From an uncultured delta proteobacterium (GTDB lineage Bacteria; Desulfobacterota; Binatia; Binatales; Binataceae), in assembly GCA_963835905.1 (NCBI GenBank), contig CAWIHG010000008.1, positions 258,384 through 322,383 on the forward strand: a stretch of 64,000 bases of DNA. Direction: 5' to 3'. This document shows positions 28,540-63,150 of the stretch, in pieces. The position numbers were made by a program, and so were the translations under genes. Below the pieces are notes generated by a model. That model had not been told where the DNA came from and ran no database searches. It saw only the letters and a list, made by a program, of their open reading frames with translations. How positions within the stretch are numbered: position 1 is the first letter of the stretch; every line of letters starts with the position of its first letter.

Positions 28540-29751
28540 ATGCGGTACAGCGCGCTGAGCGATCTGCGAGTCGTCGATCTGACCCACTTCATCGCGGGAC
28601 CTTACGCAACCAGGATGCTCGCCGATTTCGGCGCGCGCGTGGTCAAGGTCGAGCCGCCGGGCGGCGAAGGCGGGCGCAGGCTCGGCGCCGCGCGCGCGGG
28701 CGCCGATCGCGGAGCGCTGTTCGCCTTTCTTAATACCGACAAGCTCGGCGTTTCGCTTGATCTGAAGAGTGCGCGCGGACGCGATTTGATCCTCGAGATG
28801 CTCGCGAACGCGGACCTGATGGTTGAGAATTTCTCGCCGGGAACGCTGGCGCGGCTCGGGCTTGCCCCCGTCGATCTGCTCGCGCGCTTCCCGCGGCTTT
28901 CAATCGTCTCGATTTCCAATTTTGGCCAGGACGGCCCCGACCGCGACGCACCTCTCGACGATCTGACCCTGTTCGCGCGTGGCGGATGGACCTTTCCCGT
29001 CGGCGAGCGCACCCGCGAGCCGCTCACGCCACCGGGCTCGCTGGCGCAGTATATCGCGGGGCTGTACGGCGCCGTGGGCGCGATGCAGGCAACGATGGCG
29101 CGCGATCTCGGCGGCGCGCGCGGCCAGCACGTCGATATCTCACTGCTCGAGGCGACCGTCTCCACGATGATCTACGAGTCGGTCGGCTTCCAGTACAGCG
29201 GAATCCTGCGCGAGCGCGCGGGCCGCCGCTTTGCGATCGGCCCGTTCCTGATCGTCACGCTCAAGTGCAAGGACGGCTACGCCGGATTGCAGCAGGTGAC
29301 CGACAAGCAGTTCGAAGCGTTGTGCGACCTGATGAACCGGCGCGACCTGCTCTCCGACGCGCGCTTCACCACCGCGCGCGACCGGATGCTGAACAACGAC
29401 GCACTGCTCGAGATCGTGGCGGAATTCTTTCTCGACCGCGAACGCCAGTGGCTTTATCGCGAGGGCCAGGGGCGCGGACTGCCGCTGGTCCCGATCCCGA
29501 GTATCGCGGAGGTGCTCGAATGGGAGCAGACCCGCGCGCGCGGCTACTTCGAGACCATTGAAGATCCCGCGCTCGGCGCGATCCGGATTCCCGGCGCGCC
29601 GCTGCGCCTGATGTCGCATCGCGCGGCCCCCTCGCGGCCCGCGCCGCGCCTGGGCGAGCACAATCGCGAAGTGCTCGGCGCGGGACTGGGCCTGGATTCG
29701 TCCGCGCTGCGCGAACTCGCGGCCGCGGGCACTATTGCGGGGACCATATGA
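28540..29751 (+). CDS. Family III CoA-transferase (CaiB/BaiF)
   Basis: LRVVDLTHFIAGPYATRMLADFGARVVKVEPP N-terminus and conserved Asp region. Confidence 0.85.
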   Translation: MRYSALSDLRVVDLTHFIAGPYATRMLADFGARVVKVEPPGGEGGRRLGAARAGADRGALFAFLNTDKLGVSLDLKSARGRDLILEMLANADLMVENFSPGTLARLGLAPVDLLARFPRLSIVSISNFGQDGPDRDAPLDDLTLFARGGWTFPVGERTREPLTPPGSLAQYIAGLYGAVGAMQATMARDLGGARGQHVDISLLEATVSTMIYESVGFQYSGILRERAGRRFAIGPFLIVTLKCKDGYAGLQQVTDKQFEALCDLMNRRDLLSDARFTTARDRMLNNDALLEIVAEFFLDRERQWLYREGQGRGLPLVPIPSIAEVLEWEQTRARGYFETIEDPALGAIRIPGAPLRLMSHRAAPSRPAPRLGEHNREVLGAGLGLDSSALRELAAAGTIAGTI

Positions 29752-30998
29752 CGACGCCGTTTGACGGAAAAATCCGGGTGCTCGATCTCTCGATGGGATG
29801 GGCGGGGCCGCTTGCGTCCCAGATGCTCGCCGAGATGGGCGCCGAGGTAATCAAGGTCGAGGACACCCAGTACATCGACTGGTGGCGCGGGTCGCTCTCG
29901 ATGGGTCCGCCCGAGCTGCAGGTTCATGAGCGCGCCCCAACCTTCAACAGCGCAAATCGCGGCAAGCTCGGCGTGACGCTCGACCTCGCAAGCCCGCGCG
30001 GCATCGAGATCGTAAAGCGGCTCGTCGCGATCTCAGACGTGCTGGTCGAAAATTACAGCCCCGGCGTGATGGCGCGGTTCGGAGTCGATTGGCCGGTGCT
30101 GGAGCCGCTCAATGCACGGCTGGTGATGCTCTCGATGCCGTCGTTCGGGTACGGTGGCCCCGAAACCAACTCGCGCGGTTACGGCAACACGGTCGAGGCG
30201 ATGGCCGGCGTGACGACGCTCAACCGCTACCACGACTCCGAGCAGCCCTACACGCTCTCCAACGCGCTCGGCGATCCGGTCAGCGGAATCACCGGCGCCT
30301 TCGCGGTGCTCGCCGCACTGCACGAGCGCGAACGCACCGGGCGCGGCCAGTGGATCGAGCTTGCTCAGGTTGAGGCGGCAATCCCGCTGCTCGCCGGGCC
30401 GATTATCGACTCTCAGCTCACCGGTGCGCCACCGCGCGCGCGCGGCAATCGCCATCCGGAGCACGCTCCGCACGGTCTGTACCGATGCGCCGGCGATGAC
30501 GACTGGATCGCGATCTCCGCGGCCACCGACGAGCAATGGCGCGCGCTTGCCGCCGCCCTGGGCCGCGAAGATCTCACCCGCGATCCGCGTTTTGCCGATG
30601 CGCCCGGGCGCAAGGCCAACGAGGACGCGCTCGATGCGGAAATTACCCACGCGCTCGCGCAGACCTCGCAAGATGACGCCGTGACGAGACTTCGCGCCGC
30701 AGGGGTGTGCGCCGCGCCGGTCAATTCAGCGCCGGCGGTGCTCGGCGATCCGCAGCTTCAGGAGCGCGGGTATTTCGTCGCGATCGATCGCGCCGTCAGC
30801 GGCACGCACCTGTATCCGGGCGCAGTCGCGCGGATGTCGGGCACTCCGCTCAACGCCAGCGCGCCGGCTCCACTGCTCGGCGAGCACAACGCGCACGTGT
30901 TCGGGAATATTCTCGGGATGAGCGCGGCGGAAATTTCGGAGCTCGAAGAGGCGGGCGTGATCGGCACCAGCCCGCGCCAGTACCGGCAAGCGTCGTAG
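29748..30998 (+). CDS. Family III CoA-transferase (CaiB/BaiF), tandem paralog
   Basis: IRVLDLSMGWAGP...VIKVE signature; 4-bp overlap with the upstream gene. Confidence 0.85.
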   Translation: MTTPFDGKIRVLDLSMGWAGPLASQMLAEMGAEVIKVEDTQYIDWWRGSLSMGPPELQVHERAPTFNSANRGKLGVTLDLASPRGIEIVKRLVAISDVLVENYSPGVMARFGVDWPVLEPLNARLVMLSMPSFGYGGPETNSRGYGNTVEAMAGVTTLNRYHDSEQPYTLSNALGDPVSGITGAFAVLAALHERERTGRGQWIELAQVEAAIPLLAGPIIDSQLTGAPPRARGNRHPEHAPHGLYRCAGDDDWIAISAATDEQWRALAAALGREDLTRDPRFADAPGRKANEDALDAEITHALAQTSQDDAVTRLRAAGVCAAPVNSAPAVLGDPQLQERGYFVAIDRAVSGTHLYPGAVARMSGTPLNASAPAPLLGEHNAHVFGNILGMSAAEISELEEAGVIGTSPRQYRQAS

Positions 30999-46092: not shown

Positions 46093-47294
46093 GCGAGCCG
46101 GGCGCGCTTGCGGGTCTGCGGGTCCTTGACCTGAGCGACCATCGCGCGCAGCTATGCGCGCGAACGTTGGCCGACATGGGCGCCGACGTTATCAAGGTCG
46201 AGCCGCCGGGCGGCGACGCGGCGCGCCGGATCGGCCCGTTCGCCGGCGACCAGCCTCATCGCGATCGCTCGCTGTTCTTCTGGTTCTACAATCTCAACAA
46301 ACGCTCGCTCACGCTCGACGTCGCCACCGCGCGCGGCGCGGAAATTTTCCGCAAGCTCGCCGCATCGGCCGACGTGGTGATCGAAAGCTTCGCGCCGGGC
46401 ACGATGGAGCGGCTGGGGCTCGGGTGGGAGCGGCTTCATCGCGAGAATCCGGCGCTGGTGATGCTCTCCGCAGCGCCCTTCGGGCAAAGCGGCCCGTATC
46501 GCGACTTCCAGGCCGACGACACCGTGCTGACGGCGCTGGGCGGGATGCTCTACGTCAACGGATTTCCCGGGCACGCGCCGGTGCGTCCGCTGGGCCTGCA
46601 GGCTTATCATTCGGGCGCGTACTACGGCGCGATCGCCACGATGCTCGCGCTGCTCGCGCGCGACAATTGCGGCCAGGGCGCATTGATCGATCTCTCGATG
46701 CAGGAGGCGACCGCCAGCGCGGTGGAGCACGTGGCCGGCAGCTTCTTTGAGACCGGCACCACGGAGCCGCGCCGCGGCACGCTGCATTGGAGCCGCTTCT
46801 TCCGGGTCGGGCGATGCCGCGACGGCTATATCATGCACTGCACGCTCGGCGACTGGACCTCGCTTATCGAATGGCTCAAGGCCGACGGCAAGGCGGGCGA
46901 CCTGGTCGCGCCCGAGTACGACCAGGTGCTGCATCGGTACGCCAACGCCGAGCATCTGTTCGACGTGCTGGACCAGTGGGTCAAGGATTACGATCGCGAT
47001 GAGCTGCTGGAGCGGGCCCAGATGCTGCGGCAGCCGTATGCGACGGTGCGCGCGCCCGAGGCGCTGTTCGAAGACGAGCAGCTTGCGGCGCGCGGATTTT
47101 TCGCCGAGGTCGAGCATCCCGAGCTGGGCCGCAGCTTCAAGTATCCGGGCGCGCCCTACCTCTTCGGTGGCACGCCGTGGCGCGTCTATCGGCGCCCGCC
47201 GCTGGTCGGAGAGCATAGCGGCGAGATCCTGCGCGAGGACGCGGGACTGGACGCGGACGAGATCGCGGCGCTCGCGGCCGAGGGAGTGATCTGA
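46089..47294 (+). CDS. Family III CoA-transferase (CaiB/BaiF)
   Basis: LRVLDLSDHRAQLCARTLADMGADVIKVEPP signature. Confidence 0.85.
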   Translation: MSEPGALAGLRVLDLSDHRAQLCARTLADMGADVIKVEPPGGDAARRIGPFAGDQPHRDRSLFFWFYNLNKRSLTLDVATARGAEIFRKLAASADVVIESFAPGTMERLGLGWERLHRENPALVMLSAAPFGQSGPYRDFQADDTVLTALGGMLYVNGFPGHAPVRPLGLQAYHSGAYYGAIATMLALLARDNCGQGALIDLSMQEATASAVEHVAGSFFETGTTEPRRGTLHWSRFFRVGRCRDGYIMHCTLGDWTSLIEWLKADGKAGDLVAPEYDQVLHRYANAEHLFDVLDQWVKDYDRDELLERAQMLRQPYATVRAPEALFEDEQLAARGFFAEVEHPELGRSFKYPGAPYLFGGTPWRVYRRPPLVGEHSGEILREDAGLDADEIAALAAEGVI

Positions 47295-47296
47295 TC

Positions 47297-48499
47297 GTGG
47301 CCGCGATGCCGCTGGAGGGAATCCGGGTGCTCGATTTCACCTGGGTCGTCGCGGGACCGGTGGCGACGCGGATTCTGGCCGACCACGGTGCCGAGGTCGT
47401 CAAGGTCGAGCGCAAGGTGCCGCCACCGCTCGGCAACCGCAAGGTGGGACTCCAATGCGACCTTCATCGCGACAAGCTCTCGGTCGCGATCAACATGGCG
47501 ACGCCGCGCGGAGTCGAGCTCGCGCGCAAACTCGCCGCCAAAAGCGACGTCGTGATCGACAACTTCTCGGCGCGCGTGATGCGCGCGTGGGGGATGGATT
47601 ACGAGTCGCTGCGCGCGGTCAAACCCGACATTATTTGCGTCAGCATGTCGGGACTCGGTCATACCGGACCGCGCTCGAGCTACGTCAGCTACGGGCCGAC
47701 GCTGCAGGCGCTGTCGGGCTACACGCTTCTGATGGCGGAAGACGACGGCCGGCCGGCGGGCTACGGATATTCCTACGCGGACATGAGCGGTGGATATACC
47801 GGAGCGCTCGCGGCACTGATCGCGCTGTACAATCGCAAGCGCACCGGGCGCGGCCAGTTCGTCGATCTGTCGCAGTTCGAGGCGGTCACCGCCGTGGTGG
47901 GAACTTCGCTGCTCGATATCGCGGTCAACGGCCGCACGCAGACGCCGTTCGGCTACAAATCGCAGGAGGCGCCCGCCGCGCCGCACGGGGTTTACCGATG
48001 CCGCGCGCGCGGCGACGACGACGACAGGTGGATCGCGATCGCGGTGCGCACGCAATCCGAATGGGAGCGCTTCACCGCCGCGCTCGGCGCGCCCGCGTGG
48101 ACGAGCGATCCGAAATTCCGCACGCTTTACCTGCGGATGCGCAATCACGCCGAGCTCGACGCGCAGGTCACGCGCTGGACGCGCGAGCGCAGCGCGGAAG
48201 ACGCGATGGAGCATCTGCAGCGCGCGCAGATAGCGGCCGGGGTGGTCTCCAACGGGGCGGACCTGTGCGAGCGCGATCCGCAGCTCAAGGCGCGCGGATT
48301 TTACGCGCCGCTCGCGGCCGCTTCGGGAGCCTCGACCAGGGTCACCGGGATTCCGTTCCGCATCTCGTCGGGCTCGGGTGCGATCCGCACGATCGCTCCC
48401 GAGGTGGGCGAGAACAACGCGCACGTGCTGGGTCATATCCTGGGACTCAGCGCCGCGCAGCAGGCGGAGCTCGTCGAGCAGGGCGCCGTCTGGCCGTAG
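47297..48499 (+). CDS. Family III CoA-transferase (CaiB/BaiF), tandem paralog
   Basis: IRVLDFTWVVAGPVATRILADHGAEVVKVE signature. Confidence 0.85.
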   Translation: MAAMPLEGIRVLDFTWVVAGPVATRILADHGAEVVKVERKVPPPLGNRKVGLQCDLHRDKLSVAINMATPRGVELARKLAAKSDVVIDNFSARVMRAWGMDYESLRAVKPDIICVSMSGLGHTGPRSSYVSYGPTLQALSGYTLLMAEDDGRPAGYGYSYADMSGGYTGALAALIALYNRKRTGRGQFVDLSQFEAVTAVVGTSLLDIAVNGRTQTPFGYKSQEAPAAPHGVYRCRARGDDDDRWIAIAVRTQSEWERFTAALGAPAWTSDPKFRTLYLRMRNHAELDAQVTRWTRERSAEDAMEHLQRAQIAAGVVSNGADLCERDPQLKARGFYAPLAAASGASTRVTGIPFRISSGSGAIRTIAPEVGENNAHVLGHILGLSAAQQAELVEQGAVWP

Positions 48500-48513: not shown

Positions 48514-49076
48514 TTTTTTCATTCCAGCGCGTGTGGAGACCGGGGTCGCTCGACTTCGCTCGAAGACTCGCTCCGCTCGGGATGACACAAGGGCGCGCCG
48601 CGCCCGCGGCGAGTCCGTCATCTAGAATCGCCGGTTCCTTTATCTTGACCGATACCTCCGTCATCCTGAGCGAAGCGAAGGATCTCGCGCGGTCCTCCGC
48701 GCGTCGCTGCGAGACTTGACGCGGCCGCAAAAGGAGTCGGCCGCGAGATCCTTCGCCGTCGCAGCCGACAGAAGGCCCTCTCGCTGCGCTCAGGGCGCCC
48801 AGGCGGCGGCTCAGGATGACCGAGAAAGAGAGCGGCGAAGGGGATTGGAGCGGCGTGAACCGGCGGCGCGGCGCCGCCTCAGAATGAGAGACGGGGGCGC
48901 GCCCCTGTTTTGTCATTCCAGCGCGTGTGGAGACCGGGGTCCCTCGACTTCGCTCGAAGGTCCTTCGCTCCGCGCAGAACGTCCACTCGGTCGCGCGGCG
49001 CGGCGCTAGCGTCGTAATTCGGTCATCCTGAGACGAGTCTGCGAGGCGAAGGATCTCGCGCGGTCCTCTGCGCGCC
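48514..49076. repeat. Cluster of REP-like palindromic elements (A units near 48514 and 48906; B units near 48660 and 49022; inverted partial copies between)
   Basis: A unit is TTTTGTCATTCCAGCGCGTGTGGAGACCGGGGTCSCTCGACTTCGCTCGAAG; B unit is GTCATCCTGAGCGAAGCGAAGGATCTCGCGCGGTCCTCCGCGCG. Both occur in two direct copies plus reverse-orientation fragments. Confidence 0.8.
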
Positions 49077-59854: not shown

Positions 59855-59996
59855 TTCCGTCATCCCGAGCGAAGCCGAGGGATCCCGGATCCGGGATTTC
59901 TCGACTCCGCCCGCAACGGGCTCCGCTCGAAATGACGGAGGGCCGCCCACTGCGGGCTCCGCTCGAAATGACGGAAGGCCGCCCGCAATGGGCGGA
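59855..59996. repeat. REP-like element cluster (one forward B-like core, CCGGATCCGG palindrome, two inverted 22-bp copies)
   Basis: gtcatcccgagcgaagccgagggatc, then gggctccgctcgaaatgacgga twice, which is the reverse complement of the core. Confidence 0.7.
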
Positions 59997-60072: not shown

Positions 60073-60759
60073 ATGGATTTCCACGTAATCACGCTGTTCC
60101 CCGAGATGTTCTCGTCGCCGTTCTCCTCGGGAATAATCGCGCGCGCAATCGAGCAGCAGATAATCGGCCTGAAGCTTCATCCGCTGCGCCCCTTCGGCCT
60201 GAGCAATTACCGGCAGGTCGACGACGCGCCGTACGGAGGGGGCAGCGGGATGGTGATGCGGCCGGAGCCGATCGCGGCCGCGATCGATTCGGTCACCGCC
60301 ACCAATCCCGCGCTGTGGAAGATCCTGATGACGCCGCAGGGCGAGGTCTTCGACCAGGCGCTTGCGCGCGAGCTGGCGGGCCGCGGCGGCGGGCTGCTGC
60401 TCGTGGCGGGGCGCTACGAGGGAATCGACGAGCGGGTGCGCTCGCTGGTGGACCAGGAAATCTCGATCGGCGATTACGTGCTGTCGGGCGGCGAGATACC
60501 CGCGATGGCGGTTATCGAGGCGGTCGCGCGGCTGGTGCCGGGCGTGCTCGGCAATCCCGACTCGCTTAGCGAGGAATCGTTCGCCGAGGGGACCCTGGAA
60601 TATCCGCAGTACACGCGGCCCGAGGAGTTCCGCGGGATGCGGGTGCCCGAAATCCTGCTCAGCGGCGACCATGGCAAGATCCGCGCGTGGCGGCGCGAGG
60701 AAGCCCGGCGCCGGACCGCGCGCCGGCGCCCGGACCTGGGCGTGCGGCGCAAACCGTGA
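60073..60759 (+). CDS. trmD: tRNA (guanine37-N1)-methyltransferase
   Basis: SPOUT knot motifs and TrmD-specific [16 protein letters not shown]. Confidence 0.95.
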
Positions 60760-61319
60760 GCACCGCCGATCTGTTCGTCGCCCTGCTCCACTATCCGGTC
60801 GTCGATCGCACCGGACGGATCGTGACCTCGGCGATCACCAGCCTCGACCTCCATGATATCGCACGCTCGGCGCGGACTTACGGCGTGCGCGGGTTCTTCG
60901 TCGTGCATCCGATTCCGGAGCAGCGCGGGTTCGCCGCATCCGTGATCGATCACTGGCGGTTCGATTTCGGGCGCGCGCACGACTCGCGCCGGCGCGAGGC
61001 GCTGGCGCTGGTCGAGATCGTCGCGGACCTCGACGCCGCGACCGCGGCGGCCGAGCGGATCGCGGGTGCGCGCCCGACCCTGGTCCACACCTCGGCGCGC
61101 AATCAATCGGGGCTGACCTTTGCCGAGTTGCGCGGCCGGATGGAAGTGGCGGGCGCCGCGCCGGTCATGCTCCTGCTCGGGACCGGATTCGGGTTCGCGC
61201 CGGCCATCCGGGAGCGGGCCGACCTGGCGCTGGAACCGATTGCCGGCGCGACCGATTACAACCATCTGTCGGTGCGCGCCGCCGTTGCGATCATGCTCGA
61301 CAGGCTGCGCGGGCGCTGA
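60756..61319 (+). CDS. SPOUT-superfamily RNA methyltransferase-like protein
   Basis: GTG start overlapping the trmD stop; C-terminal LLLGTGFG and [16 protein letters not shown] resemble SPOUT motifs 2 and 3. Confidence 0.45.
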
Positions 61320-61386
61320 GCGCCGCCCACGGCGCCGCTTCCCGTTGCGATGCACAAGGGGCATCATATCGGCGGAGCGCGACGCG

Positions 61387-61905
61387 ATGACGTGGAGACA
61401 TAATCCGCCGACACGGGGTTTGCTGTGCGCCGCGATCGCAGCGGCCACGATGCTCGCGGGATGCGCGACCACGGCGGTGCCCGTCGGCGGCTCCCGCGCC
61501 GGGGCCCTGCTGCCCGACCGCGCCCGCGCACTCATCCAGCATTGCCCCGAGCTTGCGTGTACCGCCGCCGAGGTGCCGGGATGCGGCTTCGGCGAGGACG
61601 TGGAAGCCGGCGGTATCACGATGCGCGCCGAGATCGAATGCGCCCGCGATGGCGCCGGGACCGCATGCGTGGAGCGGCGCAAGCCGGTGGGCGGCGAGAA
61701 TCTGACTCTGCAGAATCAGCGGCTGAACTTCCGATGCGCCGGCGATCCGCTGACCTGCGTGGTTACGGGCGGCAGCGCGATGTGGCCGGAGCCGGCGGCG
61801 ATAGCGGGCGGGGCGGCAAGCGGCCCCGAACTCTCTTGCCATGCACCGCGGCGGGCAGGACCCGCGCCGGCGCCGCACAGCATCCCCGGCCCCGACACCG
61901 CGTAA
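61387..61905 (+). CDS. Cys-rich hypothetical lipoprotein
   Basis: Lipobox (MLAGCAT); the last ~70 nt belong to the duplicated block that flanks the GIY-YIG cassette. Confidence 0.45.
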   Translation: MTWRHNPPTRGLLCAAIAAATMLAGCATTAVPVGGSRAGALLPDRARALIQHCPELACTAAEVPGCGFGEDVEAGGITMRAEIECARDGAGTACVERRKPVGGENLTLQNQRLNFRCAGDPLTCVVTGGSAMWPEPAAIAGGAASGPELSCHAPRRAGPAPAPHSIPGPDTA

Positions 61906-62061
61906 AGCGCGCGCGACGAGCGACGGCGCCAGGGTCTGGGGCGGATTGATCGCATGTGCGACACGCATCAGCGGCGTTCCTCGCGATCCCTAATGATACC
62001 CCGATTTTCCTCAACACCCGCCCGTAATGCTGAATACTTGGCCGTAATGCTGAACATCCGG

Positions 62062-62108
62062 CCATCATCCTGAACGAAGTGAAGGATCTCGCGCGGTCCT
62101 CCGCGCGC
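62062..62108 (+). repeat. REP-like element B, forward copy (left inverted repeat of the GIY-YIG cassette)
   Basis: tcatcctgaacgaagtgaaggatctcgcgcggtcctccgcgcgc; ends 9 nt before the GIY-YIG ATG. Confidence 0.8.
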
Positions 62109-62116
62109 TTCTGAAA

Positions 62117-62437
62117 ATGCGCCGCACCTATTGCGTGTACATCATGAGCAGCAAGTCCGGTGTGCTCTGCATCGGCTCGACCAGCGATCTCGAGCGACGC
62201 GTGATCGAACACAAGCAGGGATTATTCCCAGGCTTCACGAGAAAATACCGGGTGAACCCACTCGTGTACTTCGAAGAGTTCGAGCGGGCAACTCAGATGG
62301 TAGAGCGCGAGCGACGGCTGAAGGGCTGGACCAGGCAAAAGAAGCTCGAATTGATTCACAGCCAGAACCCCGAGATGGTTGATTACGCGCGGAGGACCGC
62401 GCGAGATCCTTCGCTCCGCGGACTTCGCTCAGGATGA
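62117..62437 (+). CDS. GIY-YIG nuclease family protein (small YhbQ/COG2827-like)
   Basis: YCVYIMSSKSGVLCIGSTSDLERRVIEHKQG..YFEEFE...RERRLKGWTRQKKLELI..NP matches the GIY-YIG/URI domain; the C-terminal 15 codons run into the inverted REP-like element. Confidence 0.85.
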   Translation: MRRTYCVYIMSSKSGVLCIGSTSDLERRVIEHKQGLFPGFTRKYRVNPLVYFEEFERATQMVERERRLKGWTRQKKLELIHSQNPEMVDYARRTARDPSLRGLRSG

Positions 62438-62438
62438 C
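62386..62438 (-). repeat. REP-like element B, inverted copy (right inverted repeat of the GIY-YIG cassette)
   Basis: Reverse complement is gtcatcctgagcgaagtccgcggagcgaaggatctcgcgcggtcctccgcgc; it contains the GIY-YIG stop codon. Confidence 0.8.
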
Positions 62439-62778
62439 GACTGGAGCTGGTGCGCCGTGGTTGAGCGCACGGGACATAAGCGGGGCTCGAGCGTCAGGCG
62501 CCGAGCTCTCTTGCCAGGCACGCGGCGGGCCGGACCCGCCCCGGCGCCGCACAGCATCCCCGGCCCCGACACCGCGCAAGGCGCGCGCGACGAGCGACGG
62601 CGCCAGGGTCTGGGGCGGATTGATCGCATGTGCGACACGCATCAGCGGCGTTCCTCGCGATCCCTGATGACACCCCGATTTTCCTCAACAATCGGCCGTC
62701 GCGCTGAACACGGCGCAGTCATGCTGCAGACCCGCCCGTCGTCGAGAACACCCGCCCGTCACGCTGAACGCTCTGTCC

Positions 62779-62823
62779 GTCATCCTGAGCGCAGCGAAGG
62801 ATCTCGCGCAGTCTTCCGCGCGC
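62779..62823 (+). repeat. REP-like element B, forward solo copy
   Basis: gtcatcctgagcgcagcgaaggatctcgcgcagtcttccgcgcgc. Confidence 0.8.
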
Positions 62824-62910
62824 CTGTTCGTCGGTTCACCGCTACGTGAAGCGTCCGGAGAAATACGACGACGCTCATTTGGGAGAGTATCGCCGGGCGG
62901 CACGCTAATT

Positions 62911-63150
62911 TTATCTGTCAATCTTAACCGCCCGCCGCCAGAGCCAACCCAGAAGCTCGTGCCAGTACCATCCGAATAGCCGCACCACAAACCAGCCGAA
63001 GCAGATCGCGGTGGCGATCGCGAAAATCACGGAAAGCCATCGCGTGCCGTATGCCGCTCCCGCCAGAATTCCGAAGACCCACGCCATGACGAGCGCAATA
63101 TAGGCGGACGGGCGAAGCCTGGGCCTGCCGTCTGGTTGCTGTGATGGCAT
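62911..63150 (-). CDS. Hypothetical small membrane protein (79 aa, 2 TM)
   Basis: ORF with two hydrophobic helices and a Trp-rich tail; no known domain. Confidence 0.4.
   Translation of the reverse strand: MPSQQPDGRPRLRPSAYIALVMAWVFGILAGAAYGTRWLSVIFAIATAICFGWFVVRLFGWYWHELLGWLWRRAVKIDR

Follow-up and report, generated by a model that had tools for sequence, protein, structure and literature searches.

A single-domain GIY-YIG nuclease gene between inverted hairpin repeats in a Binataceae-like genome is probably a new member of the Ssn system

Introduction

What does a small nuclease gene have to do with a repeat that flanks it in inverted copies and also lies alone elsewhere in the same DNA: are the copies sites that the enzyme recognizes, parts of an element that the enzyme spreads, or neither? 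The question is raised by a 64,000-nucleotide stretch from an uncultured delta proteobacterium placed in the Binataceae (positions 258,384 to 322,383 of contig CAWIHG010000008.1, assembly GCA_963835905.1; hereafter the window, at its full length), in which the gene of a 106-residue GIY-YIG protein starts just downstream of one repeat and ends within an inverted copy of it. A first-pass annotation of this DNA took the arrangement to be novel and compared it with repetitive extragenic palindromic (REP) sequences and their REP-associated tyrosine transposases (RAYTs), with a GIY-YIG nuclease standing in for the HUH enzyme. The comparison is apt, and Chenal et al. 2025 (Nat Commun, PMC11893778) discuss the same parallel; the novelty falls away, since that paper had already described the system.

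SsnA of Neisseria meningitidis, a 94-residue single-domain GIY-YIG protein, binds the NTS repeat (CGTCATTCCCGCGMAVGCGGGAATCYRG) as single-stranded DNA (ssDNA) only and in one orientation, cuts a few nucleotides upstream of the repeat, and is inactive on double-stranded DNA (dsDNA) and RNA (PMC11893778). The GTC directly 5′ of the palindrome governs cleavage and the C directly 3′ of it governs binding, and the substitutions Y6A, Y17A, and E64A abolish cutting with binding kept (PMC11893778). Homologues (CDD cd10448) are widespread, 42% of them with "Ssn-related motifs" (SRMs) within 500 bp on both sides, a feature that membership does not require, and some 29% with none, and the authors liken NTS–ssnA–NTS to an insertion sequence; restriction of transformation by NTS-containing DNA in Neisseria is the only in vivo role shown so far (PMC11893778). 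A follow-up literature search found no later paper on Ssn. Di Nocera, De Gregorio & Rocco 2013 (PMC3733652) defined a superfamily of REPs with an unpaired CGTC or TGTC tag and stems that start with A–T, among them dRS3 of Neisseria and RPE-4 and RPE-6 of Rickettsia, which "apparently lack a dedicated transposase."

Here we argue that the window locus is a member of the Ssn system, that is, a single-domain GIY-YIG nuclease gene enclosed by SRMs in inverted orientation, the hairpin repeats that are cognate to it, a reading to which we assign a probability of about 0.8.

Results

The gene product is an Ssn-like protein with an altered catalytic tyrosine

62117–62437, + strand: ssn-like gene, single-domain GIY-YIG nuclease, 106 residues (Pfam PF01541; BLASTP against the N. 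gonorrhoeae ssnA orthologue)

The Pfam GIY-YIG family (PF01541) matches residues 5 to 76 of the product (E = 2.6e-13) and is the sole Pfam match above cut-off; the protein is thus a single domain and, at 106 residues, lies well within the 150 residues allowed for the Ssn family. It is encoded by the one GIY-YIG gene of the whole window. A tblastn search of 7.3 Gb (PLSDB) with this protein retrieved an N. gonorrhoeae chromosome (E = 2e-11) from a record that is filed as a plasmid and is 2.17 Mb long (NZ_CP119142.1, 1880219–1883470). Eight repeats that match the published NTS surround the ssnA orthologue encoded there, and BLASTP aligns the window protein with this orthologue at 40% identity over 84 residues (E = 1e-20), covering 84 of its 92 residues (91%). 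With the gonococcal orthologue taken in place of CAX49033.1, these values fall inside the limits of the Ssn family (E < 1e-10 and at least 75% coverage of SsnA). At the gonococcal locus itself, the NTS tags point toward the gene, the opposite of the window, and no standard start codon lies in frame before the conserved N-terminus.

The label "YhbQ-like," given to the protein in the first-pass annotation, should be dropped. The only PDB matches are distant UPF0213 entries (1ywl and 1zg2; E = 8.7e-6 and 3.3e-4), with no Ssn structure among them, so that UPF0213/YhbQ proteins, although they too consist of a small stand-alone GIY-YIG domain, are far less similar to the window protein (E about 1e-5) than the SsnA orthologue is (1e-20); we know of no repeat association for UPF0213/YhbQ proteins. 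NCBIfam, PADLOC, and PHROGs returned zero matches, and exact-protein look-ups for two proteins (P0001 and P0002) returned no record.

Among the catalytic residues, on which activity and not family membership depends, the equivalents of SsnA Y6 and E64 are present as Y8 and E65. The residue that aligns with SsnA Y17 in the BLASTP alignment against the gonococcal orthologue is C18: codon 18 (62168–62170) is TGC in the window, and this YIG tyrosine is Tyr in 119/119 other aligned homologues. R48P is near-unique among 120 aligned proteins, at a position that is not conserved in Neisseria. Because Cys replaces the YIG tyrosine, the window protein, by analogy with the SsnA substitutions, probably still binds and probably cuts poorly, barring an assembly error.

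Both flanking repeats are pairs of hairpins, and the right-hand one is coding

62063–62088, + strand: left SRM core, with CATC tag, ATCCT/AGGAT stem, tandem G·A pairs, ACGAAGT mini-hairpin, and 3′ C; the tag points away from the gene (inverted repeats, ssDNA fold, layout like Neisseria NTS)
62090–62107, + strand: GC-rich second hairpin, between the SRM and the gene (fold; also present in relatives' loci L001–L006 and L083 and in solo copies in the window)
62386–62403, − strand: inverted GC-rich hairpin in the coding region, codons 91–96, ARRTAR (inverted repeats, fold, third-codon-position identity)
62405–62439, − strand: right SRM, tag outward, with a 9-nt insertion in the hairpin; encodes ...DPSLRGLRSG and includes the TGA stop at 62435–62437 (repeat search)

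The gene is bracketed by a forward repeat (62063–62107) and an inverted repeat (62386–62439) that takes in its last codons and stop, just as the first-pass annotation had it. Two collinear inverted-repeat pairs, one with 33-nt arms that are 94% complementary (62075–62107 and 62386–62418) and one with 24-nt arms that are 83% complementary (62057–62080 and 62422–62445), together make up one imperfect inverted repeat of ~51/59 nt, the right arm of which is interrupted by the 9-nt insertion; local alignment of the upstream region with the reverse complement of the gene end scores 60, compared with a shuffle maximum of 21. The left arm ends 8 to 9 nt 5′ of the ATG. From its start at codon 91, the right arm encodes the C-terminal tail of the protein, and the stop codon is the TGA of its terminal GGATGAC. 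The 9-nt insertion is common to a small subclade of relatives (P0002, P0006, P0007, and P0076).

Folded as ssDNA, the element forms two adjacent hairpins; the "45-bp palindromic element B" of the earlier description is thus real as a repeat and is not one palindrome. The first hairpin, the SRM, comprises an unpaired (C/T)GTC tag, an ATCCT/AGGAT stem, tandem G·A pairs, a central GCGAAGC-type mini-hairpin, and a C directly after the palindrome; counted along the stem, five Watson–Crick pairs are followed by two G·A pairs and two more Watson–Crick pairs, with a 3-nt loop and a CTC tail. The second hairpin is GC-rich (CGCGCGG-TCCT-CCGCGCG). The left arm (62060–62110) folds at −12.6 kcal/mol (z = −2.66 versus shuffles) and carries the tag CATC, not the usual CGTC/TGTC, with the same A found in L005; degraded copies of the element fold no better than shuffles. 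GNA mini-hairpins of the GCGAAGC type are classic stable DNA hairpins, a feature that argues against a function of the repeats in RNA, to which we return below. Rfam at the gathering threshold matched only a tRNA in the whole window, and a search of 61700–63000 at E ≤ 1 gave zero matches, so that the repeat corresponds to no known RNA family. A hammerhead-like or kink-turn reading of the CUGA...GA core was considered and dropped, since the consensus did not fit and Rfam was negative.

The architecture recurs in relatives from many phyla

The protein has 158 database relatives, with 59 to 83% identity among the 120 listed, and the few that are named are Candidatus Binataceae by annotation. We fetched 80 genomic loci of relatives at 41 to 75% identity (464 kb in all), the record titles of which name Binataceae, "Deltaproteobacteria," Acidobacteriota, Latescibacterota, Phycisphaerae, Firmicutes/Bacillota, Patescibacteria, Bacteroidota, Gammaproteobacteria, an alphaproteobacterium, and others. 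The repeats can be read in the proteins: nearly all relatives end in ...DYARRTARDPSLRSG, which is the inverted repeat in translation, and over-extended gene calls begin with MLRHPERSEGSRAVLRALRA, the forward repeat in translation. At the nucleotide level, the 10-nt core GTCAYYYYGA (fourth Y also G) occurs 315 times in the 464 kb against ~21 expected. A forward copy within 150 nt upstream of the gene, combined with an inverted copy at or just past its end, is found in 44 of the 80 loci and places the tags outward; the opposite tag arrangement is found in only five, and in 23 loci the TGA stop is that of the terminal ...GGATGAC tag. The association of gene and repeat that was first noticed at this one locus is thus a recurrent one, across phyla.

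The stems vary by lineage (ATCCT, ATTCT, ACCCT, ATTCC, and ATTTC), with both halves changing jointly, and some relatives' copies have a longer inserted hairpin instead of the mini-hairpin. The two arms of one cassette carry matching lineage-specific changes, as in L003, with GAAGGACCTC on one side and GAGGTCCTTC on the other, and in L005, where an altered GC hairpin is present on both sides (arm-to-arm covariation). In a codon alignment of the window with L001–L006 and L083, to which the frameshifted L006 contributes its first 41 codons only, third codon positions have a mean pairwise identity of 0.82 over codons 88–100 (the tail) and of 0.57 over codons 5–87 (the core); the tail is therefore constrained as nucleotide sequence, beyond what the protein requires. 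We also observed that five loci from one peat-soil population (L085, L087, L088, L091, and L092) harbor an Endonuclease_7 (PF02945) gene ~290 nt upstream of the Ssn gene, on the opposite strand.

The repeat has the layout of an SRM and escapes the published pattern

An SRM layout is found on both sides of the gene (62063–62088 and 62405–62439), with a GTC-type tag (CATC on the left), a stem that starts with AT, and a 3′ C, and the window repeat keeps both experimentally critical positions of NTS. The window locus and the Neisseria system have in common a GIY-YIG protein of ~100 residues and a single domain, inverted flanking hairpin repeats, solo copies, the (C/T)GTC tag, the AT-start stem, and the 3′ C. 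They differ in that the window SRM has a 5-bp stem, tandem G·A pairs, and a GNA mini-hairpin in place of a continuous stem of 8 to 9 bp; in that the window element has a second, GC-rich hairpin attached; in that its 3′ repeat lies inside the ORF and supplies both tail and stop codon; and in that the catalytic YIG tyrosine is Cys in the window copy. On sequence grounds, we regard the window repeat as a structural variant of the SRM that is invisible to the published pattern. The first-pass proposal that the repeats may be recognition sites of the nuclease has been demonstrated experimentally for homologues (PMC11893778), and the window protein, which falls within those authors' sequence limits, would be expected to behave likewise.

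Several points weigh against membership of the Ssn system. The published SRM pattern, HGTCWYN(0-2)YYVSBRHN(0-5)WNVSBRGN(0-2)RNCYNB, which we ran as a regular expression, gave zero matches in the window and a match in one of the 80 relatives' loci, and the same pattern found the eight NTS of the Neisseria locus; because the pattern misses it, the repeat is placed in the SRM class by its layout and not by the authors' own test. Our comparison partner is a gonococcal orthologue from a mislabelled chromosome and not the published N. meningitidis sequence. Y18C could be genuine and inactivating, or it could stem from misassembly or a sequencing error, the sequence being that of a metagenome-assembled genome (MAG). 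The window tags point outward, opposite to those of the one Neisseria locus examined, and the effects of cleavage may therefore differ. Finally, the one biological role described for the system is that in Neisseria (PMC11893778).

Solo copies and related repeats in the window

48659–48703, + strand: solo B element (SRM and GC hairpin), the best-preserved copy in the window (exact pattern match)
48748–48821, − strand: B-like SRM with a long insertion in the hairpin (pattern search)
49021–49074, + strand: B element with an insertion in the SRM hairpin (pattern search; predicted SRM fold poor)
62778–62823, + strand: solo copy, SRM at 62778–62803 with a degraded GC hairpin (weak fold, z = −0.19)
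59858–59973, unstranded: other SRM subtypes in a cluster upstream of trmD, namely a forward ATCCC/GGGAT hairpin (59858–59885), an inverted ATTTC/GAAAT hairpin with an insertion (59896–59937), and an extra half-site to 59973 (pattern search, fold)

The scattered solo copies described in the first-pass annotation are present: the core pattern matches at 48662, 62066, and 62781 with 0 matches expected by chance, and variants with insertions occur at 49022 (+) and 48820 (−). The related repeats are confined to three intergenic clusters, and solo copies are found in both orientations. The copy at 48656–48705 folds as ssDNA at −13.9 kcal/mol (z = −3.03), a stability reached by none of 200 shuffles. 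Together with 48748–48821, the copy at 48659–48703 makes up an inverted doublet that encloses no gene and whose tags point outward; a derivation of this doublet (48659–48821) from the cassette by deletion is not obvious, as no similarity to the inner sequence beside the arms could be seen by eye. Further subtypes that have the same layout and different stems (ATCCC/GGGAT and ATTTC/GAAAT) cluster at 48550–48587 and 59858–59973.

Other repeats were seen alongside these. A CATTCCAGCGCGTGTGGAGACC... element is present in two 96%-identical copies in the window (48514–48565 and 48908–48959), and another repeat, TGTCATTCCCGCGCGTGG...CGCGCGAGGAAT, flanks a clade of Ssn paralogues (53 to 55% identity) observed in two MAGs, L032 (Binataceae) and L031 ("delta proteobacterium"); this clade and the CATTCCAGCGCGTGTGGAGACC element suggest several nuclease–repeat pairs per lineage. 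The Bpu repeat of Cycas mitochondria (PMC8297867; 36-nt consensus AAGGTTATCCCTTTCCTGAGCGTAGCGAAGGGAAGG) has the 15-nt core CTGAGCGTAGCGAAG in common with SRMs of Firmicutes relatives such as L053 and is built like an SRM, with stem, tandem G·A pairs, and mini-hairpin, and without a GTCA tag; the likeness may reflect convergence or a distant relationship. Long direct repeats of 60 to 79% identity (28563–30957 and 46170–48485) indicate three paralogous genes, two of them adjacent at ~28.5–31 kb and one at ~46–48.5 kb.

The cassette has sharp ends and is absent from orthologous sites

Eight close cassettes are 364 to 417 nt long and lie in unrelated flanks. The similarity among them ends exactly at the outward tags, with mean pairwise identities of 96 to 100% in the terminal 10 nt inside each end and 27 to 32% in the 40 nt outside, and no target-site duplication is found at the ends of any of the eight. 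That the repeat boundaries should coincide with the cassette ends, as anticipated from the single locus, holds for 8/8 of these copies. P0007, which belongs to the same subclade as the window protein, sits after a radical-SAM gene, and trmD, rplS, and the other window neighbors are found in none of the 80 relatives' loci. Three genomes have two copies in different contexts, and relatives with two copies include Clostridium and Balneola, and here too the similarity is restricted to the cassette (L063/L076, 90.6% over 436 nt; L078/L080, 94% over 535 nt; L033/L037, 82% over 476 nt).

From metagenomes we recovered 80 orthologous trmD–SPOUT–rplS loci by way of the SPOUT-like gene next to trmD, and none of the 80, 58 of which span the SPOUT-to-rplS gap, encodes an Ssn relative. 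The gap measures 63 to 1397 nt in the 58 loci with both genes, compared with 2180 nt in the window, and the site is therefore variable; in L107, it contains solo repeats and no gene. What separates trmD from rplS (60687–61905 in the window) is a SPOUT-like gene, joined in some relatives by one for a lipoprotein. Decayed copies are represented by the frameshift in L006 and by Y18C in the window. One identical protein was read on 24 contigs, always with the same neighbors at the same locus, and recent movement is therefore unsupported. The comparative evidence favors past mobility of the cassette as a unit, for which the support is indirect, and does not give the mechanism.

These observations overlap with those expected under a further-reaching explanation, namely that the cassette acts, or acted until recently, as a new type of autonomous, selfish mobile element, an analogue of RAYT/REPIN or IS200/IS605 in which the GIY-YIG ssDNA nuclease drives copying, the solo and doublet repeats are nonautonomous derivatives, and the missing mobilizing enzyme of the CGTC-tagged REPs has been found. 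Its distinct claim is that the enzyme itself drives copying; were this true, the outward tags, the in-repeat stop codon, and the half-site arrays and ~290-nt duplication described below would be footprints of insertion chemistry. Discrete units that end at their tags in eight genomes with unrelated flanks, their absence from 80/80 orthologous loci, paralogue pairs alike over the unit only, decaying copies, and the gene-less doublet at 48659–48821 all suit such an element, as does the stop codon inside the terminal repeat, which is likewise a feature of many insertion sequences. The lack of a target-site duplication at the eight units, the constant context of the protein found on 24 contigs, the single copy in 64 kb, and the inverted arms, which leave one cleavable site per ssDNA strand, unlike IS200/IS605, speak against it. 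GIY-YIG nucleases hydrolyse DNA and form no covalent intermediate, and this chemistry is therefore incapable of strand transfer alone. The literature cuts both ways, in that CGTC REPs were reported without a dedicated transposase (PMC3733652) and the analogy to insertion sequences was raised by Chenal et al., whereas the one role shown in vivo is restriction of transforming ssDNA (PMC11893778). We consider this explanation possible and on balance unlikely, and the first-pass suggestion that the enzyme generates or mobilizes the repeats is not established, given the missing target-site duplications, the 24 contigs with one context, and the hydrolytic chemistry.

A local duplication and half-site arrays surround the gene

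61822–62108, + strand: direct repeat copy 1, consisting of lipoprotein 3′ end, native downstream sequence, half-site array, and left repeat (direct repeats, alignment)
62497–62823, + strand: direct repeat copy 2, in which a second, frameshifted lipoprotein 3′ end is followed by five half-site units and by a solo SRM whose GC hairpin is degraded (direct repeats, alignment)
62013–62074, + strand: three tandem 20-nt units, each similar to an SRM tag with the 5′ half that follows it; the third is itself the 5′ half of the left SRM (direct-repeat family)

The gene is also bracketed by a direct repeat of ~290 nt (61822–62108 and 62497–62823; 86% mean column identity), so that the order along the DNA is lipoprotein 3′ end, half-site array, repeat, gene, inverted repeat, 57 nt, pseudo-3′ end, half-site array, and solo repeat. 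The first part of the direct repeat is homologous to the lipoprotein 3′ end and downstream sequence in related loci (L097 and L133), and in copy 2 a 1-nt deletion relative to copy 1 shifts the frame. An exact 31-mer from the duplicated segment was not found in metagenomes. Two histories fit this pattern, namely an insertion that duplicated a long piece of native DNA, or a tandem duplication and a later deletion. Each full repeat of the direct-repeat pair is preceded by a tandem array of 20-nt units, the second at 62687–62788; similar arrays of 19 to 23 nt lie next to SRMs in seven other loci from different phyla (L005, L018, L026, L043, L044, L047, and L065), and L063 and L076 have 17-nt arrays of the SRM 3′ half. 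We know of no mechanism that accounts for tandem half-site arrays.

GIY-YIG homing endonucleases are well known, and a gene that adjoins a repeat also found solo, with a flanking duplication of native DNA as a possible trace of repair-mediated insertion, could be read as that of a free-standing enzyme that cuts solo sites in dsDNA and is copied in by recombinational repair. Enzymes of the I-TevI/Seg type have a separate DNA-binding domain; the window protein is a bare 106-residue catalytic domain with no PHROG match. Many solo sites remain unoccupied, the other seven units lack a flanking duplication, and the tested Ssn homologues do not cut dsDNA (PMC11893778), so that the double-strand homing cassette put forward in the first-pass annotation is not established and, in our estimate, highly improbable. 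Least probable of all is that the repeats act in RNA, as mRNA-stabilizing or terminating hairpins or by pairing of transcript 5′ and 3′ ends, with the nuclease gene an incidental neighbor: the elements are hairpins, their arms covary within a cassette, and many REPs are transcribed, according to Di Nocera et al. (PMC3733652), but the pairing with one nuclease family recurs across many phyla, SsnA binds ssDNA and not RNA (PMC11893778), no Rfam match appears even at E ≤ 1, and solo copies occur in both orientations.

Discussion

The structure at this locus is real and nonrandom, and we read it as belonging to the Ssn system published in 2025, not to a new kind of element; the pairing of gene and repeat has been known as Ssn since that year, and the window locus is a new and probably crippled member. 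By homology with the Neisseria and Wolbachia enzymes, an Ssn protein would bind the repeat only as ssDNA with an extruded hairpin, would recognize the stem together with the GTC tag on the 5′ side and the C that directly follows the palindrome, and would then nick that strand a few nucleotides 5′ of the tag. As both tags point outward, one nick is predicted just beyond either end of the ~375-nt cassette, each on a different strand, and the enzyme would have additional targets in the solo copies found elsewhere in the genome. The cassette itself would be a lineage-specific insertion between the lipoprotein gene and rplS that probably came in one piece and has been retained, or has been decaying, since then.

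This placement leaves resemblances to two other kinds of repeat. Like the CGTC-tagged REPs, the window element has a terminal unpaired CGTC/TGTC tag and an A–T stem start, frequently forms inverted dimers, and is mostly intergenic. Measured against the definition of that superfamily, the tag and the AT start are present, and the stem, the 3-nt loop, and the CTC tail deviate: the described families have an 8- to 9-bp stem, a 4- to 5-nt loop, and a CCA-like tail and come mostly from Alphaproteobacteria, whereas the stem of the window element is composite and contains mismatches, and the genome is Binataceae-like. With RAYT/REP systems and REPINs the locus shares a nuclease gene, usually in single copy, between inverted and scattered hairpin repeats, and the recognition, predicted here from homologues, of an ssDNA hairpin with an orienting tag. 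A REPtron, however, is defined by an HUH/Y1 gene and a GTAG tag, and the window has a GIY-YIG protein, which forms no covalent tyrosine intermediate, and a CGTC tag.

Beyond the window, the repeat type that escapes the published pattern is shared by a large clade of Ssn genes, with examples here from MAGs labelled Binataceae, Acidobacteriota, Firmicutes/Bacillota, Patescibacteria, Bacteroidota, and others; the association with repeats is therefore probably more common than published counts suggest. For ssDNA tools, such repeats could offer new specificities, and the sharp cassette ends, the outward tags, the 3′ repeat fused to the ORF, and the presence or absence at orthologous sites are the type of evidence by which the mobility of Ssn cassettes, and their part in the spread of CGTC-type REPs, may be tested.

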